Sequence record: NC_031928.1
Length of the DNA: 64,000 bases
Reading direction: 5' to 3' (one strand)
Source of the DNA: Escherichia phage WG01
The notes below the pieces were generated by a model. That model was not told the origin of the DNA and searched no databases. It worked only from the letters and a program-made list of their open reading frames with translations. Shown here piece by piece: positions 5,655-33,504 of the stretch (position 1 is its first letter; every line of letters begins with the position of its first letter). The position numbers and the translations under genes are program-made.

Positions 5655-6082
5655 TGTTCCTTATCCCTGATGATTACGAATTAACTCTAGAAAGCGTAGA
5701 GGCCAAAATTCCAGAAGCACAGGGACGTTTTGCTGCTCTTTCTGAAGCGCTCGAGAAAAGCGATATAAATAATCTTGTAGAGAACATGATTGCTGAAGGC
5801 GATATCGAATGTGCTATCGCTCTTGGTTCTTTAAATGAATCAATGGCTCTTAACGAATTTATCGTTAAACACGTTTCCTCTAAAGGTGAGCTTACTCGTA
5901 CTAAAGATATTAAAACCCGTCAACGTAATGCGTTCCAAACGACAGGTTTATCTAAAGCAAAACGCCGTCAGATTGCTCGTAAAGCATCTAAAACCAAACG
6001 TGCTAATCCGTCTACTCAAGTACGTGCCGAACGTAAGCGTAAGAAAGCCCGTTCTAAACGTAAAGCTTTTGGACTTAACTAA
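5654..6082 (+). CDS. 68: prohead core protein
   Basis: 142 aa, basic C-terminus; TAATG coupling; position as T4 gene 68. Confidence 0.75.
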
Positions 6083-6717: not shown

Positions 6718-6720
6718 ATA
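6713..6720 (+). promoter_or_regulatory. late promoter TATAAATA upstream of gene 22
   Basis: Exact consensus overlapping gene 21 stop. Confidence 0.6.
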
Positions 6721-6747
6721 TTATTATCTAAACAACAGGACTACAAA

Positions 6748-7563
6748 ATGCTTAAAGAACAACTGATCGCCGAAGCACAGAATATTGATGCTTCCGTTGC
6801 TCTTGACAGTATTTTCGAATCAGTTAATATTTCTCCGGAAGCAAAAGAAACTTTCGGCACTGTATTCGAAGCTACCGTCAAGCAACACGCCGTGAAACTG
6901 GCTGAATCTCACATCGCTAAAATCGCTGAAAAAGCGGAAGAAGAAGTCGAGAAAAATAAAGAAGAAGCTGAAGAAAAAGCCGATAAGAAAATCCAAGAAG
7001 CTGCCGGTCGTTTCCTTGACCACGTTGCTAAAGAATGGATGGCTGAAAACCAGCTGGCTGTTGATAAAGGTATTAAAGCCGAACTGTTCGAATCCATGTT
7101 GATGGGTATGAAAGAACTGTTTGTTGAACACAATGTGGTTGTTCCAGAAGAAGCAGTAGATGTTGTTGCTGAAATGGAAGAAGAGCTCCAAGAGCAGAAA
7201 GATGAAACCGCTCGTCTGTTCGAAGAAGTTGGTATGCGCGATGCGTATATTAATTACGTACAGCGTGAAGTTGCTGTTACGGAAGCAACTAAAGACCTGA
7301 CCGAATCTCAAAAAGAAAAAGTCAGTTCTCTGGTAGAAGGCATGGATTATTCCGATGCATTCGGTAAAAAAATTGGCGCTATTGTTGAAATGGTTAAAGG
7401 TCAGTCTGACGTTGGAAACCCAATCACCGAAGCCGCTATAAATAAAAATGTAGACGATGCTGCGGCACTGAATTACATTTCAGAAGCAGTTGAAGAAAAA
7501 GGCGCTAAGCCTACCCTGTCCTTCGCGGACCTGTCTGCAATCGCAGCATCACGAATTTCTTAA
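6748..7563 (+). CDS. 22: prohead core scaffold protein
   Basis: 271 aa, acidic, coiled-coil-like (EEEVEKNKEEAEEKADKK); late promoter TATAAATA at 6713. Confidence 0.88.
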   Translation: MLKEQLIAEAQNIDASVALDSIFESVNISPEAKETFGTVFEATVKQHAVKLAESHIAKIAEKAEEEVEKNKEEAEEKADKKIQEAAGRFLDHVAKEWMAENQLAVDKGIKAELFESMLMGMKELFVEHNVVVPEEAVDVVAEMEEELQEQKDETARLFEEVGMRDAYINYVQREVAVTEATKDLTESQKEKVSSLVEGMDYSDAFGKKIGAIVEMVKGQSDVGNPITEAAINKNVDDAAALNYISEAVEEKGAKPTLSFADLSAIAASRIS

Positions 7564-7584
7564 TTTAATAAGGTTATACAACAC

Positions 7585-9144: not shown

Positions 9145-9175
9145 TAACATAAGTTATTAATTCTTAAAATTATTT

Positions 9176-9200
9176 GGGAGACTTCGGTCTCCCATTCTTG
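9176..9200 (+). terminator. rho-independent terminator after gene 23
   Basis: GGGAGAC-TTCG-GTCTCCC followed by T-rich tract. Confidence 0.7.
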
Positions 9201-9208
9201 TTTCTGTA

Positions 9209-9475
9209 TTATGCAATCTTAACTCGGCGGTTGATGATATCACGGAAGTCAATACGATTTTCTTGGATTTTCAGCCAGTTACCAGATTTGTCTTTGGTAT
9301 GGGTAGAGTATTCACCGTTCCACCAGAAGTCGGTAGCATAAGCCATGGCTTCGTATTTCTTAACTAAGGCATTCACTGCATTACCATTAGGATTGTTACC
9401 GAATTTTTCTACCAGAGCTTTGATGTCTTTATCAAGAGCGGAAAGAGTAGTACGAATAAAGTTTAACTTGTTCAT
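9209..9475 (-). CDS. hypothetical protein (88 aa), early-promoter-driven ORF between genes 23 and 24
   Basis: ORF-track start 9490 lies inside the SD (ATGAGGAGATTAAAAATG); real start taken as the ATG at 9475; own early promoter upstream. Confidence 0.55.
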   Translation of the reverse strand: MNKLNFIRTTLSALDKDIKALVEKFGNNPNGNAVNALVKKYEAMAYATDFWWNGEYSTHTKDKSGNWLKIQENRIDFRDIINRRVKIA

Positions 9476-9494
9476 TTTTAATCTCCTCATGTTT

Positions 9495-9536
9495 TGATAG
9501 GTCTATAGTAACATGTGAGAATCTTGCTGTAAACAA
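9495..9536 (-). promoter_or_regulatory. sigma70-like early promoter cassette (copy A)
   Basis: -35 GTTTAC, spacer, extended -10 TGTTACTATAG, leader ACCTATCAAAACATGAGGAGA. Confidence 0.55.
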
Positions 9537-9540
9537 CTTT

Positions 9541-9548
9541 TATAAATA
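9541..9548 (+). promoter_or_regulatory. late promoter TATAAATA upstream of gene 24
   Basis: Exact consensus about 30 nt before the ATG. Confidence 0.6.
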
Positions 9549-15150: not shown

Positions 15151-15172
15151 TATAAATATAACTATATTTATA
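15151..15172. promoter_or_regulatory. divergent late promoters (TATAAATA on both strands) between inh and uvsW
   Basis: Plus-strand TATAAATA at 15151-15158; minus-strand TATAAATA (as TATTTATA) at 15165-15172. Confidence 0.5.
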
Positions 15173-15186
15173 ACTGAGAATTACTT

Positions 15187-16683
15187 ATGCAAATTCAAGT
15201 ACATTTTGATAATTTTAGTCATGTCCGTATTGAATGCGATGAATCTACATTCTACGAACTCAGAGACTATTTTAGCTTTGAAGCTGATGGATATAAATTC
15301 AACCCTAAATTTCGTTATGGTCAATGGGACGGACGTATTCGCCTTCTGGATTACAACCGTAAACTTCCTTATGGATTGGTCCCTCAAATTAAAAAGTTCG
15401 CTGAACAATTTGAATACTCTCTGTGGATTGACCCACGTATTCTTGAACAGGAAGATATTTCTCGTGAAGATTTTGATTCATGGGTGGCTTCTCAAGAAAT
15501 TTATTCAGGGTCTACCAAGATTGAGCCTCATTGGTATCAGAATGAAGCCGTATACAACGGCCTGACAAAACGTCGCGCAATTCTGAATTTACCTACATCT
15601 GCAGGTAAATCATTAATCCAGGCACTCCTGAGTCGATATTACGTTGAGAACTATGAAGGTAAAATCCTCATCTTAGTTCCTACTACTGCACTTGTCGACC
15701 AGATGATTAACGACTTCATCGATTATCGTCTGTTCCCTAAAGCCGCAATGCTTGGTATTCGTTCAGGTACTGCTCGTGATTCCGATGCAATGATTTATGT
15801 TTCAACTTATCAAACCGCTATCAAGCAACCTAAAGAATGGTTTGCTCAGTTCGGTATGTTTATGAACGACGAATGCCATTTGGCTACAGGTAAATCTATT
15901 TCTACTATCATCGAAGGCCTAACCAACTGTATGTTTAAATTCGGTTTGTCGGGTTCTTTAAAAGATGGTAAAGCTAATTTAATGCAATATATGGGTTTGT
16001 TTGGTGATGTGTTTAAGCCAGTATCCACCTCCCAGTTAATGGAAGAAGGACAGGTTACTGACCTTAAAATCAACAGTATTTTCCTTCGATACCCAGACGA
16101 ATTCACGGTTAAAATGAAAGGTAAAGATTACCAATCAGAAATCAAGGTCATTACTAAGGCTACTCGTCGTAATAAATGGGTTGCTAATTTAGCTGTTAAA
16201 CTCGCTAAGAAAGAAGAGAACGTATTCCTGATGTTTAAAAACATCGAACACGGTAAAACTCTTTTTGAAATGGTTAAAGAGCAACATAAAGAAGTTTATT
16301 ACGTATCAGGTGAAGTTAATACCGAAACGCGTAATGCTCTGAAAGTAATGGCGGAAAATGGTAAGGGTATTATTGTTGTGGCAAGTTATGGTGTGTTCTC
16401 TACTGGTATTTCCGTTAAGAACCTTCACCACGTTGTATTTGCCCATCCAGTAAAATCTAAAATCATTGTACTCCAGACAATTGGTCGTGTACTCCGTAAA
16501 CATGCCTCTAAATCAACAGCACAGGTGTGGGATATCATCGACGACATGGGTGTTAAGCCTAAATCAGCTACGGCTAAAAAGAAATATGTTCATTTGAACT
16601 ACGCCCTCAAACACGCTTTAGAACGTATTCAACGTTATGCTGATGAGAAATTTAATTACGTAATGAAACAGGTGGATTTATGA
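15187..16683 (+). CDS. uvsW: UvsW RNA-DNA and DNA-DNA helicase
   Basis: 498 aa; SF2 helicase motifs (PTSAGKS Walker A, DECH box); late promoter TATAAATA at 15151. Confidence 0.9.
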   Translation: MQIQVHFDNFSHVRIECDESTFYELRDYFSFEADGYKFNPKFRYGQWDGRIRLLDYNRKLPYGLVPQIKKFAEQFEYSLWIDPRILEQEDISREDFDSWVASQEIYSGSTKIEPHWYQNEAVYNGLTKRRAILNLPTSAGKSLIQALLSRYYVENYEGKILILVPTTALVDQMINDFIDYRLFPKAAMLGIRSGTARDSDAMIYVSTYQTAIKQPKEWFAQFGMFMNDECHLATGKSISTIIEGLTNCMFKFGLSGSLKDGKANLMQYMGLFGDVFKPVSTSQLMEEGQVTDLKINSIFLRYPDEFTVKMKGKDYQSEIKVITKATRRNKWVANLAVKLAKKEENVFLMFKNIEHGKTLFEMVKEQHKEVYYVSGEVNTETRNALKVMAENGKGIIVVASYGVFSTGISVKNLHHVVFAHPVKSKIIVLQTIGRVLRKHASKSTAQVWDIIDDMGVKPKSATAKKKYVHLNYALKHALERIQRYADEKFNYVMKQVDL

Positions 16684-16907
16684 AAACCTTTAAAGAAGTT
16701 ATTCAAGAAGCATCTATTGAAAGCTTCATGGCTAAAATTGGTTCTTGTCAGACTATGGACGGTCTGAAGGAACTAGAGAAGTATTACAAAACTCGTAGTA
16801 AGGAAGCTGAACTTCGTGATTCGGACGATATTAGCGTGCGTGATGCATTGGCTGGTAAGAGAGCTGAATTGGAGTCGATGGACGACGAGGAAGAGGAAGA
16901 TTTCTAA
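16680..16907 (+). CDS. uvsW.1: UvsW.1-like small acidic protein
   Basis: 75 aa; ATGA overlap with uvsW stop; acidic C-terminus. Confidence 0.7.
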   Translation: MKTFKEVIQEASIESFMAKIGSCQTMDGLKELEKYYKTRSKEAELRDSDDISVRDALAGKRAELESMDDEEEEDF

Positions 16908-16916
16908 ACAAAAAAG

Positions 16917-16938
16917 GCCCAACCTTTCGGAAGGGCCA
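16917..16938 (-). terminator. terminator after small uvsY.-2-like ORF
   Basis: GGCCC...GGGCC imperfect hairpin followed on the minus strand by TTTTTTGTTT. Confidence 0.5.
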
Positions 16939-16966
16939 ATAACCATAAATGGCTATACACACTAGA

Positions 16967-17134
16967 CTAAAGTAGTAATTGGGTTTCGTTCAGCTGTTCT
17001 TCAGTGTTTTCCGTAACCGGCAAGCTTTGAACGTAATTATAGCATGAGCCCGGATGAACCGGACCTTTTTCTGTTTCAACAACCAATGCAGCATCGATTG
17101 GAGTTTTACAGACAACGCAAATCTTATCTGACAT
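16967..17134 (-). CDS. small Cys-containing protein (55 aa), uvsY.-2 position
   Basis: Not in ORF track (under size cutoff); hand-translated MSDKICVVCKTPIDAALVVETEKGPVHPGSCYNYVQSLPV...; CxxC plus a third Cys; terminator hairpin follows. Confidence 0.5.
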   Translation of the reverse strand: MSDKICVVCKTPIDAALVVETEKGPVHPGSCYNYVQSLPVTENTEEQLNETQLLL

Positions 17135-17162
17135 GATTGTCTCCTTAGTTTAACTTACATAC

Positions 17163-17261
17163 CTATTTATTACTTGCTAAAGCAGCATTAATGAATTCTT
17201 GGAGAAGTTTCATCTTATCGGCATCTACTTTAATGGGTTTGGTATTTTTAGTACGTCTCAT
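17163..17261 (-). CDS. tiny ORF (32 aa), uvsY.-1 position
   Basis: Not in ORF track; hand-translated MRRTKNTKPIKVDADKMKLLQEFINAALASNK; TAATG coupled to uvsY stop. Confidence 0.35.
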   Translation of the reverse strand: MRRTKNTKPIKVDADKMKLLQEFINAALASNK

Positions 17262-17695
17262 TATTTACCCGCCTCAAATTGTCTCATCTCATGCATGGTC
17301 TTAAGGTTAAAACCACGCGCCTTAATAGCATCAAGTGCTGAACTACAAAAGTCTTGTAATAAAGCCCAATACTGAATTGATGTGTCGATTTTAATTACAC
17401 TAGAATCCGCAGCCATAACGGTCTTTAATTCAGATTTCTCATATTGGTCCATACAAACCTCATCACCAGGCTCTCCACGTCCCGTGTAGAAATCTAATCG
17501 CTTCTTAAGTGAGGTCTTTTTCTGGATTTCTAATCTCATTATTTCTTTCTTACAATTCGTATACAGCCTTAGCCATTTGCTGTGCAGCAAAACGTTGTTC
17601 TGTACTTCATATTGTAAACGAGTTCCATCAATCTTTAAATCCTCGTCTAATGCGTCCTGGAATGATTCTAACTTATATTCAATCTCTTTACTCAT
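17261..17695 (-). CDS. uvsY: UvsY recombination mediator
   Basis: Start moved to ATG at 17695 with SD AGGAAA; C-terminus ...QYWALLQDFCSSALDAIKARGFNLKTMHEMRQFEAGK matches recalled T4 UvsY. Confidence 0.85.
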   Translation of the reverse strand: MSKEIEYKLESFQDALDEDLKIDGTRLQYEVQNNVLLHSKWLRLYTNCKKEIMRLEIQKKTSLKKRLDFYTGRGEPGDEVCMDQYEKSELKTVMAADSSVIKIDTSIQYWALLQDFCSSALDAIKARGFNLKTMHEMRQFEAGK

Positions 17696-17726
17696 CGCAT
17701 GTTTCCTGTGTAATAACCATAGGACC

Positions 17727-17753
17727 ATTATACACTATTCATTTGAACAGCAA
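17727..17753 (-). promoter_or_regulatory. candidate MotA-dependent middle promoter for uvsY
   Basis: Minus-strand TTGCTGTTCA (MotA-box-like) about 12 nt upstream of TATAAT. Confidence 0.4.
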
Positions 17754-18143
17754 TTAACCACTCTGTGAGAGCTGGATTCTAATTTGCTCTAATGTATCTG
17801 GGTCATCAACGATACTAAACTGAACGGTCACGATAATCGAGTTATCATCGTACACAGGTGTCACACCTACAGCTAGAGCAGAAATTCTGGGTTCGAAGTT
17901 CCGCACTGCGGAAACTATATTACGCTTAATGGTATCCGTGATTAATGGAGTAATATTCTCAAACAATTGGTTGCTGATGTCACAACCGAATTCAGGCATA
18001 AAAGGGCGCGAACCCTTGCGAGTAGTAATAATGCCTAACAAACTATTTTTTACTGCGCGAGCACCTGTAGCTTTAGCGACGTCTCTATTCCAAGACGTCC
18101 TCATTTCAGGGTCTAAATCTGAATACATTTTATTGATATTCAT
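17754..18143 (-). CDS. 25: baseplate wedge subunit
   Basis: 129 aa, size and position as T4 gp25. Confidence 0.88.
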   Translation of the reverse strand: MNINKMYSDLDPEMRTSWNRDVAKATGARAVKNSLLGIITTRKGSRPFMPEFGCDISNQLFENITPLITDTIKRNIVSAVRNFEPRISALAVGVTPVYDDNSIIVTVQFSIVDDPDTLEQIRIQLSQSG

Positions 18144-18766
18144 TACATCACCTTAAAGAACTCTTTAAGTCCCTCAATAACGTGGACGGTGTGTTCACCA
18201 CATTCACAAGAAATAGGTATAGCCAAAATAGGCTTAGGGGCGACTAGTGCATCATAAACTTCTTTTATATCTTTTTCTGTTATCACAGAATAAAGGTCAT
18301 CAAGTTCCGCATCGCTTAAATCGGAAAGAAGAAGCTTTTCGCCTGCAGAAGTTAAAATATAATCGATACACCCTGCGACCATCATAGCTCTATTTTTATC
18401 TTCAAAGAGTTTAGGATATCTGAAAACAATTTTAAAGTTGCCAAAGTCTTTAATAACATCCGGCTCTTTACCCAATGTTGCTCGAGTTAGTGTCATAGGG
18501 ACAACCTGTGAGCGGCCACAACTACAACTCCACTCACGTTCTATATTCACTTCAGCTAATGAATGGGCCCATAGGTTTATCACCAGGAGCTCAGATTCTT
18601 GCTTGTTTAAATCACGGGCATCTGTGCAATTCGAAATGAGTTCATTGATAAAGGACTCTATTCTGCCTTCTAATTTAGCTTGGAGCAAGTCCTTATACTC
18701 TCTGAGGGTAAATGCTCTGCATTTTATGGTTTTGTTTTTAATTTTTACGTCAAAAGTATAATTCAT
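18143..18766 (-). CDS. 26: baseplate hub subunit
   Basis: 207 aa, position and size as T4 gp26; late promoter on minus strand at 18785-18792. Confidence 0.8.
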   Translation of the reverse strand: MNYTFDVKIKNKTIKCRAFTLREYKDLLQAKLEGRIESFINELISNCTDARDLNKQESELLVINLWAHSLAEVNIEREWSCSCGRSQVVPMTLTRATLGKEPDVIKDFGNFKIVFRYPKLFEDKNRAMMVAGCIDYILTSAGEKLLLSDLSDAELDDLYSVITEKDIKEVYDALVAPKPILAIPISCECGEHTVHVIEGLKEFFKVM

Positions 18767-18784
18767 TGTCTTCTCCTTTAAGCT

Positions 18785-18796
18785 TATTTATAAATA
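18785..18796. promoter_or_regulatory. overlapping divergent late promoters between genes 26 and 51
   Basis: TATTTATAAATA: TATAAATA on plus strand 18789-18796 and on minus strand 18785-18792. Confidence 0.55.
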
Positions 18797-22944: not shown

Positions 22945-24033
22945 ATGAAAGTAAAAGAACTTGACTTTGATGTAGCCTCCTTGTTTAAAGGAGGTTCAAA
23001 GACCTCCGCAGGTCAATCTAAAACACCACCAATAAAAACCACGGTAACCGCTCAGTATCCAGCTGAGCGGGCTTCAGGTAATGATACCTCAACCGATATG
23101 GTATTAAACGACCTCTATAAAAATGGATTGCTTTTTACCGCATATAATTTTAGTTCTCGTGTATCTCCGGATTTGCGTAACGACCGTTCGAGTCAAATGA
23201 CTAAAAAGTTCTCAAGTGCAGCCAGCAAATTAACAGGCAATAGTGGAACATATAGTGCTGTTAAAAACTTATTTGGTGGAAATACTAAGGGCGTTAAATT
23301 TGATACCCAAGCCTTAGCTAATATCCTTTTACCTCGTTCTAAATCTGATGTGGATTCCGTATCACACAAATTTAATGATGTTGGTGAGTCCTTAATTACT
23401 AAAGGCGGTGGTACTGCTACAGGTATTTTAAGTAACGTTGCTAGTACCGCGGTATTTGGTGCATTAGAATCTGTGACTAACGGCGTAATGGCTGATTCAG
23501 GCGAACAGATATACACTACAGCTCGTAGTATGTACGCCGGTCCGGATAACCGTACTAAGGTATTCACTTGGGAAATGACTCCACGAAATGCCCAAGACCT
23601 TATCCAGATTATTAAAATATACGAAATCTTCAACTATTATTCTTACGGCGAAACGGGTAATTCGGCTTTCGCAGGTGAATTAAAAGAGAAGATTGATACT
23701 TGGTATCGTTCTACATTTAAAAAAGAAGCTATTGACAAGTTTGATGGTAAGCTATTAGGGGAAAGTATTACAAGCTTCCTTTCTAATGTTATTGTGGTAA
23801 GTAACCCAACCATTTGGTATATCCGAAACTTTGGTGATAGCAGTTCATATGATGGTCGTGAAGATATTTTTGGCCCATGCCAAATCCAGAGTATCCGTTT
23901 TGATAAAACTCCGGACGGCCATTTTAACGGATTGGCTATTGCTCCTAACTTACCATCTACGTTTAGTTTAGAAGTTACTTTCCGTGAAATTATTACTCTG
24001 AACCGTGGCTCACTTTATACGGAAGGATTCTAA
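22945..24033 (+). CDS. 48: baseplate tail tube cap
   Basis: 362 aa, position and size as T4 gp48. Confidence 0.85.
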   Translation: MKVKELDFDVASLFKGGSKTSAGQSKTPPIKTTVTAQYPAERASGNDTSTDMVLNDLYKNGLLFTAYNFSSRVSPDLRNDRSSQMTKKFSSAASKLTGNSGTYSAVKNLFGGNTKGVKFDTQALANILLPRSKSDVDSVSHKFNDVGESLITKGGGTATGILSNVASTAVFGALESVTNGVMADSGEQIYTTARSMYAGPDNRTKVFTWEMTPRNAQDLIQIIKIYEIFNYYSYGETGNSAFAGELKEKIDTWYRSTFKKEAIDKFDGKLLGESITSFLSNVIVVSNPTIWYIRNFGDSSSYDGREDIFGPCQIQSIRFDKTPDGHFNGLAIAPNLPSTFSLEVTFREIITLNRGSLYTEGF

Positions 24034-24962
24034 TGTATACTTTACAAGAATTTCAGAATCAGGCAATTAATATTGACCTACAAAGGAATAACCTGTTTAG
24101 TGTGGTATTTGCCACAGTTCCTTCTTCTAAATCTCAGACGCTCCTCGACCAGTTCGGTGGAGCTTTATTTAACAATATCCCATTGAATAGCGATTTGTTT
24201 GGTATTACACAAGGAGAGTTGACCCAAGGTGTTACGACATTAGTGACAGCGGGCACTCAGAAGTTGATTCGTAAGTCAGGCATAAGTAAATATTTGATTG
24301 GAGCTATGTCATCCAGGGTTGTGCAGAGCTTACTAGGAGAGTTTGAAGTAGGTACATATCTGATGGATTTTTTCAATATGGCCTATCCTACGGCAGGTCT
24401 TTTAGTCCACGCCGTTAAAATCCCGGATAATACTTTGAACTATGAAATGGATTTGAACCACAACTCACCTAACATCAAAATTACCGGAAGAGAATATTCT
24501 CCATTAGTATTAAGCTTCCGTATGGATTCTGAAGCTGCTAACTACCGTGCTTTTAATGATTGGGTCAATAGTGTTCAAGACCCTATTACACAATTAAGAG
24601 CATTACCGGAGGATGTTGAAGCTGACATTCAAGTCAACCTTCATTCCCGTAATGGATTACCCCATACAGTAGTAATGCTTAATGGTTGCGTTCCAATGAG
24701 CGTATCTTCCCCGGAATTATCTTACGACGGTGATAACCAAATTGCTTCATTTGATGTTACATTTGCTTATAGAAGTGTACAGACTGGTGCAGTTGGCAAA
24801 CAAGCTGCTTATGAATGGTTGGAAGATAAAGTCCTTAAAGGCGTGGCGGGTATAAGTGAGAGCAATTCCCTGAGTTCTTCAGTAGCTAAATTAAGCCGAC
24901 TTTCAGGAGCTTCTAGTGGATTAACAGGATTGGTTAATAGTGGAATATCGAGGTTGTTATAA
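24033..24962 (+). CDS. 54: baseplate tail tube initiator
   Basis: 309 aa; TAATG coupled to 48; palindromic terminator follows. Confidence 0.85.
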   Translation: MYTLQEFQNQAINIDLQRNNLFSVVFATVPSSKSQTLLDQFGGALFNNIPLNSDLFGITQGELTQGVTTLVTAGTQKLIRKSGISKYLIGAMSSRVVQSLLGEFEVGTYLMDFFNMAYPTAGLLVHAVKIPDNTLNYEMDLNHNSPNIKITGREYSPLVLSFRMDSEAANYRAFNDWVNSVQDPITQLRALPEDVEADIQVNLHSRNGLPHTVVMLNGCVPMSVSSPELSYDGDNQIASFDVTFAYRSVQTGAVGKQAAYEWLEDKVLKGVAGISESNSLSSSVAKLSRLSGASSGLTGLVNSGISRLL

Positions 24963-24969
24963 CAAAAAA

Positions 24970-24987
24970 GGAGAGCATATGCTCTCC
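24970..24987. terminator. bidirectional terminator between gene 54 and the alt block
   Basis: Perfect palindrome GGAGAGC-ATAT-GCTCTCC flanked by A-run and T-run. Confidence 0.7.
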
Positions 24988-24996
24988 TTTAGGGGT

Positions 24997-25287
24997 TTAT
25001 TTACGGAACGAAATGAAACCTGCTGTGGTCATTAGTGGTTGCTTTTTAACAAACACCGTAACCGAAATAGGAGCTTCGGATTCGAGTTGTCCTGTCACTA
25101 CACCGTTAAAAATGTTTTCGGTTTGTTCTGGATAAGAAAAATTCTCAACAGGTCGGATATCAAACTGTTTGTCTTCACCGAAAACTCGACGTAATTCATT
25201 ACCCACTGCACTGTCAAACTCTTCAGAAGCAGGGATAACGTTTTCAACTACCAGTTCTTGACCATTAAAACGGAATGCAGATTTCAT
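24997..25287 (-). CDS. hypothetical protein (96 aa) downstream of the alt cluster
   Basis: Minus-strand ORF between the bidirectional terminator and the alt cluster. Confidence 0.5.
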   Translation of the reverse strand: MKSAFRFNGQELVVENVIPASEEFDSAVGNELRRVFGEDKQFDIRPVENFSYPEQTENIFNGVVTGQLESEAPISVTVFVKKQPLMTTAGFISFRK

Positions 25288-25344: not shown

Positions 25345-27468
25345 CTACATTTTGAATTTATTTGATAAAGAAGAGATATCCAAAGACGCTGCAAGGATTT
25401 CCATAGCCTCGTTGCTTTCAGAAACAGATTCATTAACCAAGAATTGACTGAACCCATCCATCAGGCGAACTTCACCAGTTTCCATCAAATGGTCACCATC
25501 GTAAACAGATTCGCTGAGCTCTGAAGGAGGTGTTACGGTAGCTTCCATAAGGTATTTGTGAGATACTCTATCATTCATGGCAAAAGCCGCTACTTTATCA
25601 ACCTTCAACAATAATCCACGCGGAAGGATAATTTCTGCTTCTTCGGCATATTCTGTAAGGTCACCAGGAGCGATAACTTTAACTGCTTCAGCACCTCGAA
25701 TAACCATACCAATTTCAGCAATTCTATCTGCAGGACCTTCAGGTGCAATTGGATTACCAAACTCGTCTTCTTCCCATTCTACCTCTTCGTCATCGACTTC
25801 ACCTACATCAGATGAACTACCACTAGCCAATTTAAACAACTCATCAGCGGAGGATAAAGAACCTTCACCGCCAACAAAAACGGCTTGGTTGTCGAGGGCC
25901 ATATAATTTTTACCAAATTCACCAAAGATGTTAGGTTTTAGTGAGGCTGACACAAAGTTCTTAAAGTAAAATGTTTTGTTATCGATATTATGGCGCAGAA
26001 TTTTGTATGGCAAATCCTGACCACGATACAAAATAGTACCCTTAGGAAGTTTAATACCCTTAGTAAATGCCGAGTCTAAATCCTTAATCAATTTAATAGC
26101 CGTTGTATTGTTTTCGGATTCAGGTTTACCTAAAAGGAATAAGTTCATAGGAGCATATTCAGCCGCGCAATATTCAATAATAGCATTGCTTTCGTCTTTG
26201 GTTAGGTCCTTAGGTTTAATGAGCTCGCCTGAATAAGCATATGCATCACTAATAGAATCGTTAACCAGTTTATAAACGGCTTCCATAGCGAAAGCAATTC
26301 TAGATGCTTTCTCTGAAGGGGAACCCTTAAAACGGGTACTCAGGTTATTAACAATTTTCTTAATAATATCCAGACTATTGGTTGTATTGATTTGCGAAAG
26401 GCCACTTAAAAGTCTATCGACTTCTGTATTAAAAAATGCCATATTATTAGAGTAAATTTCAAACCCTTGTTTATCTCTATTAGCATAATTTAGTTTAAAT
26501 TTACTATCAGTCATTAAAGCGTGTGTGAGAGCAATAGTGTATCTAAAGTTGGCAAGGTCCTCGCTCTTAGATTTAAACTGAGAAGCCTGACGCATTTTAG
26601 TAATGGCACCTTTTTTAAAGTTCTGACTAATCTGTTCAATACCTTCGTTCTCAGGGCCTTCAGCCGTGTGAACCGGTACAGAAGCTTCAAACTCGTTATA
26701 AACCTGCAATTCTTTAGGGGACAAAGTTTCAGGCTCAGCAGTAGAATACTGCGCCGCCGCTGCCATACGACGCGAAATCTTAGTACGAGTAATGACAGCC
26801 TTATCAGTACGTTTCTCTTCAACTTGTGCAATAGATGCCGCTACGGCTTCGACCTTACTTACAGCCTGGCCGGTTTTCTTAGAAACATACACTTCGCCAA
26901 CTTTAGACTCAACTTTAGTATAAAGATCGGCATTAATTTCAGGCATACCCTTGATATCTTCAATATTAGCACCACGACGTACTAAAAGAACGTAGGTATG
27001 TTTTCCGCTGAATTGGAACATGTCGTCAACAACTTTAAACTTACCACCGGTACGAGCCATAGCCAAGCGAGCTAATACGCGCTGAACGGTAGGACCTTTA
27101 CCTTTCATTTTCTTGGTAGGGAACCGGAAAAGAACTGCATCCATTTTAAGTTTGTTTACTTGTTCGTATACAGTATCAAAAATGGTATTCAGCGTACCAA
27201 GTGGGTCAGAACCTAACCCACCTTTCAACTCGGCTGGGCTACCCTTAGCAGACAAACTCATCAAAATAACATGAACATATTTGTCGCCCGGCTTAACCAT
27301 TTTAATAGCGTCTCCTTGAGACGCATAAGATACCATACGAGCAACCAGATTATCATTACCTGGTGCTTGGATAGAGAAAATCTGTGGAATACCGGAACCC
27401 GGTTTAAGATTTGTTACTGGATAGTTTTTAGCGGAATCACTATCAAAAACCTCATTTAAATTTTCCAT
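25345..27468 (-). CDS. alt: Alt-like ADP-ribosyltransferase, paralog 1
   Basis: 707 aa; conserved N-terminal ~230 aa shared with the two neighbours; C-terminal ART-like motifs YRGQ, FVSASL, EAEIILPRG. Confidence 0.85.
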   Translation of the reverse strand: MENLNEVFDSDSAKNYPVTNLKPGSGIPQIFSIQAPGNDNLVARMVSYASQGDAIKMVKPGDKYVHVILMSLSAKGSPAELKGGLGSDPLGTLNTIFDTVYEQVNKLKMDAVLFRFPTKKMKGKGPTVQRVLARLAMARTGGKFKVVDDMFQFSGKHTYVLLVRRGANIEDIKGMPEINADLYTKVESKVGEVYVSKKTGQAVSKVEAVAASIAQVEEKRTDKAVITRTKISRRMAAAAQYSTAEPETLSPKELQVYNEFEASVPVHTAEGPENEGIEQISQNFKKGAITKMRQASQFKSKSEDLANFRYTIALTHALMTDSKFKLNYANRDKQGFEIYSNNMAFFNTEVDRLLSGLSQINTTNSLDIIKKIVNNLSTRFKGSPSEKASRIAFAMEAVYKLVNDSISDAYAYSGELIKPKDLTKDESNAIIEYCAAEYAPMNLFLLGKPESENNTTAIKLIKDLDSAFTKGIKLPKGTILYRGQDLPYKILRHNIDNKTFYFKNFVSASLKPNIFGEFGKNYMALDNQAVFVGGEGSLSSADELFKLASGSSSDVGEVDDEEVEWEEDEFGNPIAPEGPADRIAEIGMVIRGAEAVKVIAPGDLTEYAEEAEIILPRGLLLKVDKVAAFAMNDRVSHKYLMEATVTPPSELSESVYDGDHLMETGEVRLMDGFSQFLVNESVSESNEAMEILAASLDISSLSNKFKM

Positions 27469-27471
27469 TAT

Positions 27472-29553
27472 TTACCCTTGGATGAATTTTTCTGGGATGT
27501 CATAGAGGTCTATGCATGAAGCCAAAAGAGGCAGTACATCAAACCGTGTAGATTTAACAAATGAATCAAAAGATAAGGGGCTTTCGGAAGTATCGAAGTC
27601 ATCTTGATATACGACCAACTCGCCGGTTTCCATTAGTACATCACCATCATATACCACAGATTCTTGAAGCTCATCTGTTGTCATAACTTCAGCTTGAATG
27701 AGTTTTGTATTACTAGATGTTGTTCCATCATTATTAGAAGCATCTGTTATTTTATTAACTTTGACCATTAATCCACGCGGTAGAATAACTTCAGCTTCAG
27801 TTGCTATTCCGAGATTTCCTGGATATACGACATTAACTTTATGGGCCCCATCAATAGCCCATCCTATTTGAACTTTAACATAATCAGGATTTTCTTTATA
27901 TGCTCTTATTTCATTAGGATTAATAGTTATTCCTTCTTCATTTTTATCAACTGTCAATTCGTTGCGAACTTCCGGTTCTAAAAGACCAATACCAGCGTGC
28001 GTAACACCAAAACGTCCGAAAATTATAGGAGTTAAAGAAGTAGATACAAAATTTCTAAAATAAAACACTTTATTTTTAACTAGTGCTTCGTATATAGGAG
28101 CAGTCATACTCTGGGCACGATAAACTGTAATGCCTTCCGGTATACGGTCACCATTTTCAAAAGCTGAATCTAAATTATTTACAGCGGATTCGATATCTTT
28201 TTCGCTCATAACCTCATAGTTCTGAGGATTATAACGTCCTAAAAGAAGATTATTTATGTCTGTATATCCTGAACCACAATATTCTCTGATACCACGCTTT
28301 TGTGATGGAGTATATTTAGAACCTTCACGAGCAATAGTAATATCAACCATAATACCACCACCCACACCAGCAAAACTATACACGCGTTTTTTAATGAACT
28401 TAGTCTTGGCTGCTTTCCACTTGGCCTCTGTCAATTCGTTCCAAAGGTCATCAGGTTGGCCTTTACGAGTTCTGTTATGGATAGCCAGCCACTCGCCTTT
28501 ATATTCTTCGAAAATGGTATTAATAGCAGAGGCATATTTTTCTAGAGCTTTAACAGATGTCAAAGGTTCGTTTTTTATTGCTGTAAGAATTTTCTCTTTA
28601 ATTTTCTCTTGGATTTCACCAATACCGTGAAGTGGGAACAATTTATAGTCGTAATGCAATTCTTCAGCAGTGCCTTCAGCTACTATATTAGCAACCTTAT
28701 TTTTAGCCGCAGGAGAATTGTTATTAGTAACCATTTCCTGAGCCTCAGGGATTAATGGAACTGTTGCCGGTTTATTAAAATCCGCTGCAGTAGCTTCATA
28801 TTTCTTAAACAATTCACTTTCATTACGATAAGATTCCAATGATTGGCTTGCTGCAATGGCGCGCCTAGAAATCTTAGTCTTGGTTATAACCATTTTATCA
28901 GTGCGACGTTCTTCAACCTTAGCAATACTACCGGCGATAGCAGTTTCTTTAGTAACCTGCACGCCTTCTTTTTTAGAAATATAAACTTCACCGACATCAG
29001 AATCTACCTTAGTATACAATTCAGCATTAATTCCAGGCATACCTTTGATATCTTCTATATCAGCTTGTTTACGAACTACCAGGATGTAAGTATGTTTACC
29101 GGTAAATTGGTACATAGCCGGAACTACTTTAAAACGTCCACCTGTTTTCTGTGCTACCAAACGTTGGATAATCCGTTGAACGATAGGGCCTTGACCTTTC
29201 ATTTTCTTAGTAGGGAAACGGAACATCACGGCATCCATACGAAGCTTTTTAACCTGTTCGAATACTACGTCGAAAATGGTATTAATAGCATCAATAGGAG
29301 TAGGGCCTAAGCCACCTTTAAGTTCTGCTGGAGTACCTTTAGCTGAAAGGCTCATAAGGATAACGTGGGCATATTTATCACCCATCTTAACCTGTTTAAT
29401 AGCATCGCCTTCAGAAGCATAGGATACCATACGTGCTACTAACTGAGACTCCGCGTCTCCAATCTTCCAAATCTGAGGTACTTTAAGTTTTGGGTTCAAG
29501 TTCACAACAGGCAGTGTACCTTCGGACTCGAACACTTCATTTAATTGGGTCAT
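27472..29553 (-). CDS. alt: Alt-like ADP-ribosyltransferase, paralog 2
   Basis: 693 aa; same architecture; motifs YRAQ, FVSTSL, EAEVILPRG. Confidence 0.85.
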   Translation of the reverse strand: MTQLNEVFESEGTLPVVNLNPKLKVPQIWKIGDAESQLVARMVSYASEGDAIKQVKMGDKYAHVILMSLSAKGTPAELKGGLGPTPIDAINTIFDVVFEQVKKLRMDAVMFRFPTKKMKGQGPIVQRIIQRLVAQKTGGRFKVVPAMYQFTGKHTYILVVRKQADIEDIKGMPGINAELYTKVDSDVGEVYISKKEGVQVTKETAIAGSIAKVEERRTDKMVITKTKISRRAIAASQSLESYRNESELFKKYEATAADFNKPATVPLIPEAQEMVTNNNSPAAKNKVANIVAEGTAEELHYDYKLFPLHGIGEIQEKIKEKILTAIKNEPLTSVKALEKYASAINTIFEEYKGEWLAIHNRTRKGQPDDLWNELTEAKWKAAKTKFIKKRVYSFAGVGGGIMVDITIAREGSKYTPSQKRGIREYCGSGYTDINNLLLGRYNPQNYEVMSEKDIESAVNNLDSAFENGDRIPEGITVYRAQSMTAPIYEALVKNKVFYFRNFVSTSLTPIIFGRFGVTHAGIGLLEPEVRNELTVDKNEEGITINPNEIRAYKENPDYVKVQIGWAIDGAHKVNVVYPGNLGIATEAEVILPRGLMVKVNKITDASNNDGTTSSNTKLIQAEVMTTDELQESVVYDGDVLMETGELVVYQDDFDTSESPLSFDSFVKSTRFDVLPLLASCIDLYDIPEKFIQG

Positions 29554-29561
29554 AATCTATC

Positions 29562-31457
29562 CTATTTAAATAAATTTGCTAATTTTTCCATAGAATCTTC
29601 ATACATAATTCTATCATAATTTCCAAACGAGAATCCGGTGCTATATGAATTTTCCTCTGTGATTTGCTCGGTAGCTACAACTTCACATTCCACTAAAACA
29701 TATTTACCAATTGAACCCATAGGTCCCTTGGAAGCACCGTATACTTTATTAATCTTAAGCATAACCCCACGAGGAAGAATTACTTCGGTTTCTGTAGACC
29801 AATTAGCCAAGTCACCGGGCACAATAACCTTAATTTTATCAGCACCTTTAATAATTAACCCTAGCTTAATGGTATCTCTAGCACTTCCGGTCGCACTTTT
29901 AATGGTGTCTTCAAGATTACTATCTATATCGCTAGAAAGAGCTTCAGGGTCTAAGTTGGATTGAGCATGACCCATTTCACCGAAAATATTAGGAGCCAAT
30001 GAAGTTGATGCAAAAATAGGAAGATACATCACCTTATGTTTTATAGAATTCAAAGCCATTTCGGTAGGCATTATCTGAGAACGATACACTATGGTTCCTT
30101 TAGGAAGTTTTGTACCATTTTCAAATGTAGAATCCAACTCACCAATCATTTTTATCATTTCATCGGTGGTATCTGTTTTACCTAGCAAAAAGTTGTTTAT
30201 ATGGTTGTAGCCGCCACGAGTATACTTTTTGACTGCCTCTTCTTGAGGTTTGGATAAATTAGGATTATCAGATATCTTAAACAACGGTTGGATAGATTTT
30301 GTATAAACTGCTACTAAGGATTTTATTACTTCCTTGATTTTAGATTCTCTAGCCCAAGTACCTTTAACTGAATCATCTAAAAGGGCCGCAGCGACTAGTC
30401 TAAGAATGTCTACATGAGATTTACCTGATTTTAAAGCCTCTATGACACTATTAGATTTATCTAAAGAATCTGATGCCTCTAAAGCAAACTTTATATCAGC
30501 AATTAGTTTAAGTTTGCGCTCGTCTACTTCAAATGATGGATTAACACCGTTAAAAATATAATCCAAATATTCTGCCATTTCTTTAGAGGCGTCTTTTAAT
30601 ATTTTATTACTGGCTAAAGCTATTTGGCTTTCTTTAGAATCTTCAGAAGAATGAACGGAACTAGTAGCAGAATAATCTGCATAAGCTTTTTTGTGCTCTG
30701 CCGAAAATTTACTCAATCCTGTAGGCTCGGCGGTAGAATATAACGCATTTATAGCGGCCCGTTTAGAAACCTTAGTCTTGGTTATAACCATTTTATCAGA
30801 ACGTGATTTTTCTATTTCGTCTATAGACTTAGCTATAGCTTCTAATTTGGTAACATCTTCGCCTGTTTTCTTTGAAACATACACATCACCGACTTCAGAT
30901 TCGACTTTAGTATACAATTCCGGATTAATATTAGGAATACCGTTTATTGATTCTATATTTTTATTTTTACGATAGATAAAAACATATGAATGTTTGCCTG
31001 TATATTGATACAAGGCATCAAGGACCTTGAATTGCCCACCTGCTCTAGTAGCTATTAATTTGGCTAGAACTCGTTGTACAGCTTTTTCCTGACCTTTCAT
31101 TTTCTTAGTAGGAAAACGGAACATAACGGCATCCATACGGAGCTTTTTAACTTGTTCATAAACCGTATCAAATATAGAACGAATAGCGGAAATGGGGTTA
31201 CTACCTAAACCACCTTTGAGTTCTGCCGGGGCCCCTTTAGATGATAGGCTCATTAAAATAATATGAACGTATTTGTCACCCGGTTTAACTTGGCGGATTG
31301 TATCACCTTCAGAAGTATATGAAACCATGCGTGCAACAAGGTTCTCATTACCTTCAGCCTTTATATTCCAAATCTGTGGTACTTTAAGTTTAGGGTTTAA
31401 ATTGACAGCTGATAAATCTATAGCGCCGTCAAATACCTCATTCAATTGTTCGGACAT
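29562..31457 (-). CDS. alt: Alt-like ADP-ribosyltransferase, paralog 3
   Basis: 631 aa; motifs YRSQ, FASTSL, ETEVILPRG; SD AAGAGGAA. Confidence 0.85.
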   Translation of the reverse strand: MSEQLNEVFDGAIDLSAVNLNPKLKVPQIWNIKAEGNENLVARMVSYTSEGDTIRQVKPGDKYVHIILMSLSSKGAPAELKGGLGSNPISAIRSIFDTVYEQVKKLRMDAVMFRFPTKKMKGQEKAVQRVLAKLIATRAGGQFKVLDALYQYTGKHSYVFIYRKNKNIESINGIPNINPELYTKVESEVGDVYVSKKTGEDVTKLEAIAKSIDEIEKSRSDKMVITKTKVSKRAAINALYSTAEPTGLSKFSAEHKKAYADYSATSSVHSSEDSKESQIALASNKILKDASKEMAEYLDYIFNGVNPSFEVDERKLKLIADIKFALEASDSLDKSNSVIEALKSGKSHVDILRLVAAALLDDSVKGTWARESKIKEVIKSLVAVYTKSIQPLFKISDNPNLSKPQEEAVKKYTRGGYNHINNFLLGKTDTTDEMIKMIGELDSTFENGTKLPKGTIVYRSQIMPTEMALNSIKHKVMYLPIFASTSLAPNIFGEMGHAQSNLDPEALSSDIDSNLEDTIKSATGSARDTIKLGLIIKGADKIKVIVPGDLANWSTETEVILPRGVMLKINKVYGASKGPMGSIGKYVLVECEVVATEQITEENSYSTGFSFGNYDRIMYEDSMEKLANLFK

Positions 31458-31485
31458 AATAATTCCTCTTTAATAACCTTATTTA

Positions 31486-31507
31486 TGCCAGAAAAGGCCC
31501 GAAGGCC
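31486..31507 (-). terminator. terminator between ligase operon and alt cluster
   Basis: GGCC-CGAA-GGCC (UUCG on minus strand) followed by TTTTC. Confidence 0.5.
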
Positions 31508-31690
31508 TTAAAGTGGTAGCAACGTACGGTATACTTCAAATTTAGGACCCTTTTCATAGCGGTCGAAATTATCTTTAAAATCAGCGAATGCGATTTCATT
31601 TTCAAATTCAAGGACAATTTGGGACACTGCAGTGGAGACATCCCCACCTTCTTTATATCCAATAACCACGGTTTCTAAATAAGCTTTCAT
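31508..31690 (-). CDS. hypothetical small protein (60 aa)
   Basis: ATG 1 nt after the ligase stop (TAATATG); ORF-track N-terminal extension overlaps the ligase gene. Confidence 0.5.
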   Translation of the reverse strand: MKAYLETVVIGYKEGGDVSTAVSQIVLEFENEIAFADFKDNFDRYEKGPKFEVYRTLLPL

Positions 31691-31691
31691 A

Positions 31692-33215
31692 TTATAGTCC
31701 AGTTTGAGACCAATCACCAAATACATCTTCAAATGTATCAGCTTCTGTTTTATCGAAACGCCAACCTTTAATGATTGGAAGGAAAATACCTACAGTATCG
31801 GTACGTCCTTTAGAATGAACCCAACCATTACATTCACAGTCAGCAATACGTCCAATCAACTTACCTTCACGAGCTTGTTTCATAAGAAGTTCACGGTCTA
31901 AATCAGGACGGTCTTCCAATGGAATCAATACTTTTTTACCTGATTTATCTTTCTTATGGGTGGTATCTTTAAAGCCTGAACCACAGTCGCTTGTAATTCG
32001 ACGACAACGTGATACCAACTCGACACCACCTAGCTTGTTAGGGTCCTTCGAGTGTTCATAATAACCCACCACTTCTAAAGCAATATCGATTACTTCTTTG
32101 AACTTGATAAGATTCTTAGAACGACGGTTTTCCCAGTAGGAGTCCATGTTCTTAAGGATAATGCCTTCCAGACCTTGGTCGACATATTTCTTATAAACGA
32201 CTTTAGCTTCTTCAAGATTATTAACCCACTGGTTTTCGATAGCTTCAACACGCGTTGTACCATGCGATACGACATTATGAGCAACCATAAGTTCTAAGGC
32301 TGTAAAGCGTACATCATACTTATCGCCTTTAATTTTACCTTCGGAATATACGACATCCAATGGGACATAATCCCATGCCTGTAATACCATACCAGCGGCT
32401 TCAGTAGCCGAAATAGTTCCTTGAAGAGCTTTGTTAGCCAAGCCATTTGACGTAGAACGATCGGCGACAGTTTGGAATTCCTTAGCCTTACTTAATTCAG
32501 GAAGTTCCTCGTCAAACATACTAAACAAATCATTAGATGCTTTAGGTTCTACCTTAGGAGTATGGTAAACTAATTCGCCATCAATCATAACGCCATTAGG
32601 ATGGCGTTGTCGAGCTTCTTCGGTCATGGCCATTAATTCAGCCGCCAAAAGATTAAGCCCTTGATATTCGTTACCACCACGAGTAAGGAATGTCACACCA
32701 TCGTTACGAACTTCGGCAAAACAACGAGCACCATCAGCTTTTAATTGAGCAAACGCTGGCCATTTAATATTTTTCTTAATCAAAGCTTCATCATAAGAAC
32801 TCGCCAACATCTGCGGTTGTTCAGGGATTAAACCTTTCCAAACCTTGTTAGCAATAGAAATCGATGCACCACATTCAAGGTCGCGCATCATTACACGACG
32901 TAATACCTCGGCATCCGGGGCCTTAGCATCAGCAATGATTTGAGCCAGTTCTTCAATAGCCGCATTACCCGTAATCTTACGTGTGGCTAATGTGAATTCA
33001 GCGAAATCAAGAAGGTCTTCAAGAGTAATCATACCAAAGGATTGAGATGTAAATCCAGGTTCTGGCCACTTTTTAATACCGTAGTTCAGACGACGGGTAT
33101 AAGCCATACGATAAACACGTTTCAGAAGCTCATTGTTCTTTTCACGAGCAATAATGGCTTCTTTAGCTTTAGTAGAATCAATAGCAGCAATTTCGTTTAA
33201 AATATCTAAAATCAT
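31692..33215 (-). CDS. 30: ATP-dependent DNA ligase
   Basis: Start moved to ATG 33215 (MILDILNEIA..., SD GAGGTGA) matching recalled T4 gp30 N-terminus; KADGAR adenylation motif. Confidence 0.92.
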   Translation of the reverse strand: MILDILNEIAAIDSTKAKEAIIAREKNNELLKRVYRMAYTRRLNYGIKKWPEPGFTSQSFGMITLEDLLDFAEFTLATRKITGNAAIEELAQIIADAKAPDAEVLRRVMMRDLECGASISIANKVWKGLIPEQPQMLASSYDEALIKKNIKWPAFAQLKADGARCFAEVRNDGVTFLTRGGNEYQGLNLLAAELMAMTEEARQRHPNGVMIDGELVYHTPKVEPKASNDLFSMFDEELPELSKAKEFQTVADRSTSNGLANKALQGTISATEAAGMVLQAWDYVPLDVVYSEGKIKGDKYDVRFTALELMVAHNVVSHGTTRVEAIENQWVNNLEEAKVVYKKYVDQGLEGIILKNMDSYWENRRSKNLIKFKEVIDIALEVVGYYEHSKDPNKLGGVELVSRCRRITSDCGSGFKDTTHKKDKSGKKVLIPLEDRPDLDRELLMKQAREGKLIGRIADCECNGWVHSKGRTDTVGIFLPIIKGWRFDKTEADTFEDVFGDWSQTGL

Positions 33216-33225
33216 AATCACCTCA

Positions 33226-33504
33226 TTAGTCATGGATTCTATTATAAGCCACATCAGCCAAAAGCAAGTCTAATCGCTTATGATAAGAGAACACAAATCT
33301 CATTCGCCCATCAGATTTGAACTTGGACATAAAGTGGACATAAATGAATCCCTGTTCGACGCATTCGCGCCAAACAGGATGGTCTTTAGCCGGATTTACA
33401 TCAAATGAGTAATCATGATTCACATGACGAATAAACTGGTTTACATGACCATAATCCATTGTAGTGGTAGGACCATAGTCTGAAATTGTATGAACTACAA
33501 ACAT
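33226..33504 (-). CDS. hypothetical protein (92 aa), 30.1 position
   Basis: Internal ATG 33504, one nt after the upstream stop. Confidence 0.45.
   Translation of the reverse strand: MFVVHTISDYGPTTTMDYGHVNQFIRHVNHDYSFDVNPAKDHPVWRECVEQGFIYVHFMSKFKSDGRMRFVFSYHKRLDLLLADVAYNRIHD

Follow-up and report, generated by a model that had tools for sequence, protein, structure and literature searches.

Alt of bacteriophage T4 is the textbook example of an injected host-takeover enzyme. It is a prohead-core protein, present in about 40 copies (PMC9958956), that is injected with the DNA and ADP-ribosylates the alpha subunit of RNA polymerase and other proteins (PMC9958956, PMC9026906, PMC5512222); it is non-essential (PMC9026906), and it has been described as a core protein besides its enzymatic role (PMC11404850). 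Mass spectrometry has shown that gp21 trims T4 Alt by 6 N-terminal residues at ITE-6 and by 63 C-terminal residues at LTE-619, leaving a mature protein of 68.2 kDa (PMC5694885). Duplications of alt have been in print since 2006 for 44RR, T4 and RB49 (PMC1524935), and have been noted for ZZ1, Ac42, JS98 and Bp7 (PMC4177764). Here we analyze an array of three consecutive Alt-family ADP-ribosyltransferase (ART) genes in a 64,000-nucleotide stretch of Escherichia phage WG01 (NC_031928.1), referred to below as the window. To our knowledge, paralogues of T4 Alt have never been studied. As the locus is already annotated in public genomes, the value of the analysis lies in comparison rather than discovery.

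All three genes lie on the minus strand, start with ATG, and are transcribed in the order C631 (29562-31457; 631 amino acids, of a rare 'C' type), B693 (27472-29553; 693 amino acids, the orthologue of T4 Alt) and A707 (25345-27468; 707 amino acids, of the 'A' type). The gap between B693 and C631 is 8 nucleotides (GATAGATT) and that between A707 and B693 is 3 (ATA), and a purine-rich stretch resembling a Shine-Dalgarno (SD) sequence precedes every start (GAGGA for C631, AGGA for B693, AAGGG for A707). The original prediction, made from the sequence before this analysis, had described three minus-strand open reading frames (ORFs) of these lengths and gaps, each with its own SD sequence, and the ORF listing matches it exactly. 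We hypothesize, as the probable explanation of the locus, that it is a late operon of three anciently diverged T4 Alt paralogues whose products would be packaged, trimmed by gp21 and injected as arginine-specific ARTs, with B693 as the counterpart of Alt, A707 and C631 likely acting on other targets, and the array having been assembled by recombination.

Catalytic residues and ancient divergence of the three Alts

Membership in the Alt family, as originally proposed for all three products, is borne out by profile matches and by the alignment of their catalytic residues. The Pfam family PF03496 (ADPrib_exo_Tox; cut-off 23.4 bits) scored 63.2 bits for A707, 124.5 for B693 and 51.9 for C631, with E-values of 2.6e-17, 4.5e-36 and 7.6e-14 (all above the gathering threshold), and PHROG 802 ('Alt-like RNA polymerase ADP-ribosyltransferase') matched each protein over its full length with E-values of 1e-207 to 1e-263. 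The N-terminal motifs first quoted for the array (LVARMVSY..GD...VK.GDKY.H.ILMSLS.KG.PAELKGGLG and MDAV.FRFPTKKMKG) were all found, as were the ART motifs, which occur in the variants YRGQ, YRAQ and YRSQ; FVSASL, FVSTSL and FASTSL; and EAEIILPRG, EAEVILPRG and ETEVILPRG. The key residues are R482, S507-A-S509 and E610-A-E612 in A707; R479, S504-T-S506 and E586-A-E588 in B693; and R459, S484-T-S486 and E556-T-E558 in C631. NCBIfam returned no family for these proteins or for the small ORFs flanking them. A further accession, PF26846, is precomputed on all family members.

In a phmmer comparison of B693 with PDB sequences, Y-R-A-Q aligned to the catalytic arginine of CPILE-a and CDTa and E-A-E-V-I-L to their E-x-E, and the direct alignment of B693 covers the arginine and E-x-E of iota toxin, CDTa and CPILE-a. 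A profile built from 72 family sequences gave the same register against C3cer, Certhrax, CDTa, iota Ia, Vis, VIP2, SpvB and C3bot; here the arginine aligned to that of C3cer and Certhrax, and the E-x-E to the Q-x-E of C3cer and the E-x-E of the binary toxins. The arginine, S-T-S and E-x-E positions of the Alts are therefore equivalent to the catalytic residues of the ART toxins in both kinds of alignment. Among the 72 homologues, the first serine of S-T-S, both glutamates of E-x-E and the L-P-R-G that follows are invariant, and the arginine is at least 90% conserved (S484, E556, E558 and R459 in C631 numbering). The AlphaFold2 model of C631 (mean predicted local distance difference score, pLDDT, 82.8; predicted template-modelling score, pTM, 0.75) matched solved structures of Vis, CDTa, C3, iota, VIP2, SpvB and C2-I in Foldseek (E 9e-6 to 3e-4), and so the predicted fold of C631 is that of an ART. 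An E-x-E rather than Q-x-E signature is the established mark of arginine specificity, and by analogy it suggests arginine-specific ADP-ribosyl transfer by all three proteins. A Glu-to-Ala mutant of T4 Alt, reported as E577A, is catalytically dead (PMC11404850), and the glutamate concerned is presumably the second of the T4 E-x-E. In RefSeq T4 Alt the motif is E574-M-E576 and residue 577 is a valine, so that the published number is off by one, apparently because residues were counted differently in PMC11404850 or in the construct used there.

Identity among the three array proteins depends strongly on the region compared, at 63-68% over the N-terminal ~235 residues, 13-16% over the middle ~170 residues and 35-39% in the ART region. 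These values, together with the middle-domain profiles, uphold the idea of a conserved N-terminal module joined to variable middle and catalytic parts; the N-termini are well conserved, and to call them near-superimposable, as had been done, overstates an identity of this order. Between middle domains, hhalign gave probabilities of 87% for A against C (E 4e-6), 4.5% for B against A and 0.2% for B against C, and the 72 homologues divide in this region into seven or more sequence clusters with no relation to one another.

Synonymous divergence (dS) between the N-domains of the array copies is 1.2-3.4 and hence saturated, with a ratio of nonsynonymous to synonymous divergence (dN/dS) of 0.09-0.22 and a third-position identity of 41-50%; the longest exact nucleotide match between copies is 15-29 nucleotides. 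The saturated dS identifies the genes as ancient paralogues, not recent duplicates, and with the short shared runs it means that the N-terminal likeness has been kept by purifying selection rather than by recent duplication or gene conversion, both of which it rules out. The single-copy Alts of Klebsiella phage Clarke_MM3 and Mosigvirus JS09 have N-domains 63-75% identical to each of the paralogues, as near as the paralogues are to one another, and the T4 N-domain is an outlier at 42-45%. B693 clusters with the T4, JS09 and Klebsiella Alts when the middle, ART and tail regions are compared (identity to T4 Alt is 60% in the ART region and 61% in the tail) and is therefore the orthologue of T4 Alt; A707 and C631 make up a deep clade of their own. 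The array had originally been called a tandem triplication, and a recent one, with young duplicates and N-termini homogenised by gene conversion, would account for three adjacent, co-oriented genes of the same architecture with N-domains this similar. For this lineage that description does not survive the saturated dS, the low third-position identity, the brevity of the shared runs, the equal nearness of single-copy N-domains from other phages and the placement of the copies in different deep clades; nor would it lead one to expect that relatives carry arrays of other compositions (B-A, B-X-A or C'-X', described below). We regard it as scarcely credible and count it as already refuted by dS and phylogeny.

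Candidate determinants of substrate choice

We propose that each Alt is built of four parts: a constant alpha/beta N-domain of ~230 residues, common to the whole family; a helical, paralogue-specific middle domain, for which homology between B and A or C is undetectable; a C3/iota-like ART core with its own ARTT (ADP-ribosylating turn-turn) loop residues and its own inserts between S-T-S and E-x-E; and a C-terminal propeptide. The distance from S-T-S to E-x-E is 103 residues in A707, 82 in B693 and 72 in C631. Three positions before the first glutamate of E-x-E, at what we take to be the place of the aromatic residue in the ARTT loop of iota Ia and C3, A707 has Y, B693 has I, C631 has W and T4 Alt has P. 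Between its S-T-S and E-x-E positions A707 also carries an acidic insert of ~30 residues that includes SSSDVGEVDDEEVEWEEDEFGNPIAPEGPADR (residues ~555-590; window 25600-25800, minus strand), which is probably disordered and which accounts for the isoelectric point (pI) of 6.1 predicted for mature A707, as compared with ~8.8-8.9 for B693 and C631.

The middle domain, the ARTT loop and insert-type features usually determine the substrate choice of an ART. Because all of these differ among the three proteins, we think it most likely that their targets differ or overlap only in part, a reading that we consider plausible from sequence comparison. B693 would probably share the targets of T4 Alt, including RNA polymerase alpha, and for A707 and C631 the likeliest targets are host proteins other than these, or in addition to them.

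Each type has been maintained intact. Against their orthologues dN/dS is 0.06-0.08 for A707 and 0.05-0.11 for B693; C631 is identical to the copy in vB_SalD_ABTNLS3 (hereafter ABTNLS3), and against the SP18 alta homologue (64% identity) its dN is 0.32 at a dS beyond saturation. These values and the intact motifs agree with the original view that the genes are not decaying duplicates, a possibility which they rule out.

Intact genes could also be redundant ones, all acting on essentially the same substrates (RNA polymerase alpha and the rest of those of T4 Alt) and kept for host robustness or for the injected dose. This would fit the common catalytic core and E-x-E signature, the promiscuity that T4 Alt already has (PMC5512222) and the fact that Alt is non-essential in T4 (PMC9026906). 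It fits less well with ART regions that share only 35-39% identity, with middle domains that are non-homologous or barely homologous, and with the differing ARTT-position residues and insert lengths; moreover, strong purifying selection on each type across phages is unexpected for mere dosage copies. We therefore consider redundancy unlikely, while granting it some weight, and favour divergent targets. If A707 and C631 do act on other host proteins, for example in defence or toxin-antitoxin systems (T4 Alt itself modifies MazF), such arrays would be a ready set of natural variants in which to trace how an ART encodes its specificity, and would show how a cocktail of injected phage proteins diversifies.

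Transcription, proposed head packaging and the N-terminal domain

One leader heads all three genes. At 31462-31510 on the minus strand, a hairpin GGCCTTCGGGCC with a T-run is followed by CATAAATA (31480-31487) and then by the SD sequence GAGGA of C631. The octamer CATAAATA differs at one position from TATAAATA, the late-promoter box of T4, and sits where T4, after the same hairpin GGCCTTCGGGCC, has the consensus TATAAATA upstream of alt (T4 locus 7504-7560, minus strand, with alt at 5455-7503). The leader is also identical to that 5' of alta in IME08 (locus 9219-9262, minus strand), although the gene that follows there is of the B type. No terminator-like site with a T-run was found at either gene junction inside the array, and a terminator-like hairpin with a 10-bp stem and a T-run lies at 24967-24990 on the minus strand, 3' of an ORF resembling alt.-3 and between it and the convergent gp54; the alt transcription unit probably ends here. 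The gaps of 3 and 8 nucleotides, the single late-type leader, the lack of internal T-run terminators and the terminator after alt.-3 together suggest one late operon. Exact copies of TATAAATA number 16 in the window against 6.5 expected, at 579-9548 (plus strand), 15151-18796, 37258, 48441 and 54818; nine of the 16 fall within the first 10 kb, all nine on the plus strand, as would fit a block of late structural genes in that part.

The flanks are those of the canonical T4 alt locus, with gp48, gp54 and alt.-3 on one side and alt.1 and gp30 on the other. The alt.-3-like ORF (24997-25287, minus strand, 96 amino acids) is the downstream neighbour of the array and has the position annotated as alt.-3 in T4, IME08 and SP18; beyond it are gp48 and gp54 (22945-24962, plus strand). 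The upstream neighbour is an alt.1-like ORF (31508-31690, minus strand, 60 amino acids from an ATG at 31690), at the position annotated as alt.1 in T4 and IME08, and the DNA ligase gene gp30, a neighbour of the alt locus in T4, is at 31692-33254, beyond the alt.1-like ORF. The alt.1-like ORF can be extended to a TTG at 31732 (31508-31732), so that it overlaps the ligase gene at its end; a start at the ATG is likelier and gives the 183-nucleotide coding sequence that ABTNLS3 has at this position. A family hidden Markov model run against six-frame ORFs of the 64-kb window matched the three array ORFs only, with no further Alt or N-domain remnants of the kind of T4 alt.-1 and alt.-2.

Both gp21 motifs are present in all three proteins at the positions mapped in T4. 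The predicted sites are LNE6 and LSE653 in A707 (mature protein 7-653, 71.1 kDa, pI 6.1), LNE6 and LQE631 in B693 (7-631, 69.5 kDa, pI 8.8), and LNE7 and ITE601 in C631 (8-601, 65.3 kDa, pI 8.9); applied to T4 Alt, the same rule gives the published 68.2 kDa. The P1 glutamate is present in 72 of 72 homologues at both sites and the P3 leucine of the N-terminal site in 71, and disorder in the C631 model is confined to residues 1-8, 602-618 and 628-631, which coincide with the predicted propeptides. From the positions of these motifs we infer, by analogy with T4, that all three Alts are packaged, trimmed and injected, and the conservation of the motifs makes co-packaging likely. Each Alt would be made as a precursor and taken into the prohead core, where gp21 would cut at two conserved sites, L-N-E|V-F near the N-terminus and (L/I)-x-E| near the C-terminus; the trimmed proteins would enter the host with the DNA and act there as E-x-E arginine mono-ADP-ribosyltransferases on host proteins. 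Virions of Morganella phage MP1 were shown by mass spectrometry to contain its single-copy Alt homologue (PMC5384007); our literature search found no report of virion proteomics for phages with several Alts.

It might be that only B693 is packaged and injected, with A707, C631 or both acting after synthesis in the manner of ModA and ModB, or serving mainly as structural core. Alt is described as a core protein besides being an enzyme (PMC11404850), and the C-terminal propeptide of C631 is only 30 residues long, as against 54-63 in the others, and is without the conserved tail motifs YDGD..LMETGE and ASCID..KF. We nevertheless judge this distinctly unlikely, given that the N-domain and both gp21 motifs are in place in all three proteins, that one late-type leader heads all three genes, and that the catalytic residues are intact throughout.

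Several points weigh against the hypothesis of three co-injected ARTs with divergent targets. Packaging, cleavage, injection and targets of these Dhakavirus Alts are all extrapolated from T4, and should the head have room for only a limited number of Alts (~40 in T4), the three paralogues would be rivals for it and one could dominate. The late box has one mismatch, and a scan for such boxes is uninformative by itself, since they are not enriched in the window (123 found, 142 expected). A707 has S-A-S instead of S-T-S, though the first serine is kept and the variant is shared with 2 of the 72 family members. T4 Alt itself modifies many proteins, according to the passage of PMC5512222 that cites Depping et al. 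2005, so that the targets of the paralogues could overlap heavily; and divergence in sequence alone is no proof of different substrates.

The simplest conserved role for the N-domain would be to bring the protein into the head core. A model of B693 residues 1-237 is a compact alpha/beta domain (pLDDT 86.5, pTM 0.86), and some phages encode the domain as a stand-alone protein (ZZ1 CDS210, PMC4177764; P0117). These separate proteins, the many invariant polar and glycine residues of the domain, and a strand-loop-helix that reads K-x-x-G-x-G in A and B or K-x-x-G-x-A in T4, like motif A of the GNAT fold (Q/R-x-x-G-x-G/A after strand beta-4), could instead point to a GNAT-like acyltransferase, which would make the Alts bifunctional enzymes rather than an ART with a packaging handle. 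The element that follows the beta strand reads K-M-K-G-Q/K-G in A and B, K-T-A-G-Q-A in T4 and K-M-K-G-Q-E in C631, with the first glycine invariant and the second replaced by E in C631. In Foldseek the N-domain model gave nothing significant against the PDB (best E 0.02, with mixed folds); separately, Z was always below 8. A profile of the N-domain alone retrieved no GNAT among PDB sequences at E<=10, and Pfam returned no GNAT family for the array proteins at E<=1. We thus take the resemblance to be weak at best, a lead only, and think an acyltransferase very unlikely; a handle for packaging is the role that we prefer.

Array composition among relatives and comparison with known systems

By megablast the region belongs to Dhakavirus, in the JS98/JS10/IME08/MX01 group of T4-like phages. 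The whole 6.1 kb is present at 96-98% nucleotide identity in ABTNLS3 (Salmonella) and in LQ5, PSD9, vB_EcoM-E33 and PSD2002 (Escherichia/Shigella), and phage 04086, whose record covers 75% of the region, is the sixth with the order C-B-A (orders are read here from the ligase side toward the gp54 side). Three Alt-like or ADP-ribosylase genes are annotated in four of the five full-coverage records; PSD2002 labels its array genes hypothetical proteins, and the record of LQ5 is without annotation, the LQ5 paper naming LQ5_76-78 as ADP-ribosylases (PMC12895675). The three-copy arrangement is thus standard and annotated among close relatives, and the genes are uncharacterised members of a known family. 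More widely, the N-domain occurs at 1,818 places in 1,200 phage records, most genera having a single copy, and in three copies in about 2 of 60 evenly sampled records. Tequatroviruses have two N-domain places, alt and the remnant alt.-1/alt.-2, and so the statement that T4 has one alt holds for full-length genes only, its annotation including the remnants of a second copy.

Four array compositions were distinguished: B-A in IME08 and JS10, B-X-A in MX01, QL01 and LHE83, C-B-A in this window and its six relatives, and C'-X' in Gaprivervirus SP18. Comparison of these orders indicates that the 'third' gene differs between groups both in type and in point of insertion. The A and B types are common to IME08/JS10 and MX01 at 97-98% amino-acid identity; the A type is the altb of IME08 and JS10, with A707 97-98% identical to IME08 altb and to MX01 ORF194. 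The C-type effector half occurs at 99% identity or more in six phage records only, and in the SP18 group at 58-60%. For LHE83, a count of four copies by tblastn proved to be an artefact, the third gene crossing the origin of the circular record and being counted twice; the real number is three, all annotated in LHE83 merely as 'hypothetical protein'.

Exchange appears to follow the edge of the N-domain. In MX01 ORF195, an N-domain like that of the A type (93% identity) is joined to an unrelated effector half (15% in the middle, 33% in the ART region), and SP18 altb is 78% identical to ORF195 in the effector half and only 41% in the N-domain. A707 itself is a mosaic: against its orthologues in ABTNLS3 and MX01, dS is 0.47-0.51 in the N-domain (26761-27468, minus strand) and 0.05-0.10 in the rest of the gene, which places a breakpoint near the junction of the N-domain and middle domain. 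On this comparative evidence the modules recombine at the N-domain boundary, and the array acts as a collection of interchangeable cassettes. It was probably built as whole genes were inserted, lost and recombined and as effector halves were exchanged at this junction, a history which would explain why relatives carry B-A, B-X-A, C-B-A or C'-X'. The N-terminus of C631, MSEQLNEVF, resembles the MTEQLNEVF of IME08 alta, and B693 in the window is without that Glu codon; this is a hint that recombination inside the first codons brought in or removed the C gene.

Taking this further, we tentatively propose, as a possibility worth stating, that the alt locus is a polymorphic site for injected-effector cassettes, in which a constant chassis (leader, N-terminal gp21 propeptide, ~230-residue N-domain, possibly a GNAT-like ligand-binding or catalytic domain instead of a passive handle, and C-terminal gp21 site) would carry swappable targeting-ART modules and each phage its own cocktail of arginine-specific ARTs. 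Modules would then be exchanged at the N-domain/effector junction, with the cocktails tuned to host targets or defences. The conserved processing sites and N-domain also define the possible needs of engineered cargo for delivery by T4-type heads.

T4 Alt (gpAlt, NP_049811) resembles the array in its locus, four-part architecture, R/STS/ExE residues, two gp21 motifs and hairpin with late-type box, at a full-length identity of 34-44% to the array proteins (60% for the ART domain of B693). In contrast to the one full-length alt and decayed N-terminal remnant (alt.-1/alt.-2) of T4, the window has three full-length genes, and unlike T4 Alt, A707 and C631 belong to the other deep clade, with a middle domain not detectably homologous to the B/T4 type, an acidic insert in A707 and a shortened C-terminal propeptide in C631. 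Nearer arrays are annotated as alta and altb in JS98, JS10, IME08 and SP18, and as three 'Alt-like' genes in MX01, QL01, AnYang, C6 and LHE83. IME08 and JS10 differ from the window in being without C, the MX01 group in having its third gene X between B and A instead of upstream of B, and SP18 in pairing a C-like gene (58-60% in the effector half) with an X-like gene. Like the window, Aeromonas phages 44RR and 31, Acinetobacter phages ZZ1 and Ac42, and Bp7 have tandem full or partial alt paralogues at the alt locus (PMC1524935, PMC4177764), with three Alt-like genes each in ZZ1 and Aeromonas phage 31. These duplications arose independently in distant genera; ZZ1 has one copy divided between a gene for the N-domain alone and a gene for the ART alone, and in Aeromonas phage 31 one copy is cut to 319 amino acids.

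The Rhs, contact-dependent inhibition (CDI), MuF-fused and polyvalent phage effectors (PMC5512222, PMC9503650) share with the alt locus a constant delivery module, exchangeable effectors, recombination at the junction and variable arrays. Unlike in those polymorphic toxin loci, neither immunity genes nor orphan C-terminal cassettes came to light in the alt array, every member of which is a complete gene, and its effectors are all of one class (ART), so that the likeness is one of logic, not of membership. With C3bot/C3cer, iota Ia, CDTa, VIP2, Vis and Certhrax, on the other hand, the Alts share the ART fold, the arginine, S-T-S and (Q/E)-x-E, as judged from profile and, for C631, predicted structure, at an identity of ~15-20%. 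The Alts add to this an N-domain and a middle domain of their own, as well as a longer distance between S-T-S and E-x-E (72-103 residues in the Alt family, ~40 in C3 and iota), and whereas the Alts would reach the host cell by injection from the phage head, the toxins do so by secretion or through a pore-forming B component.

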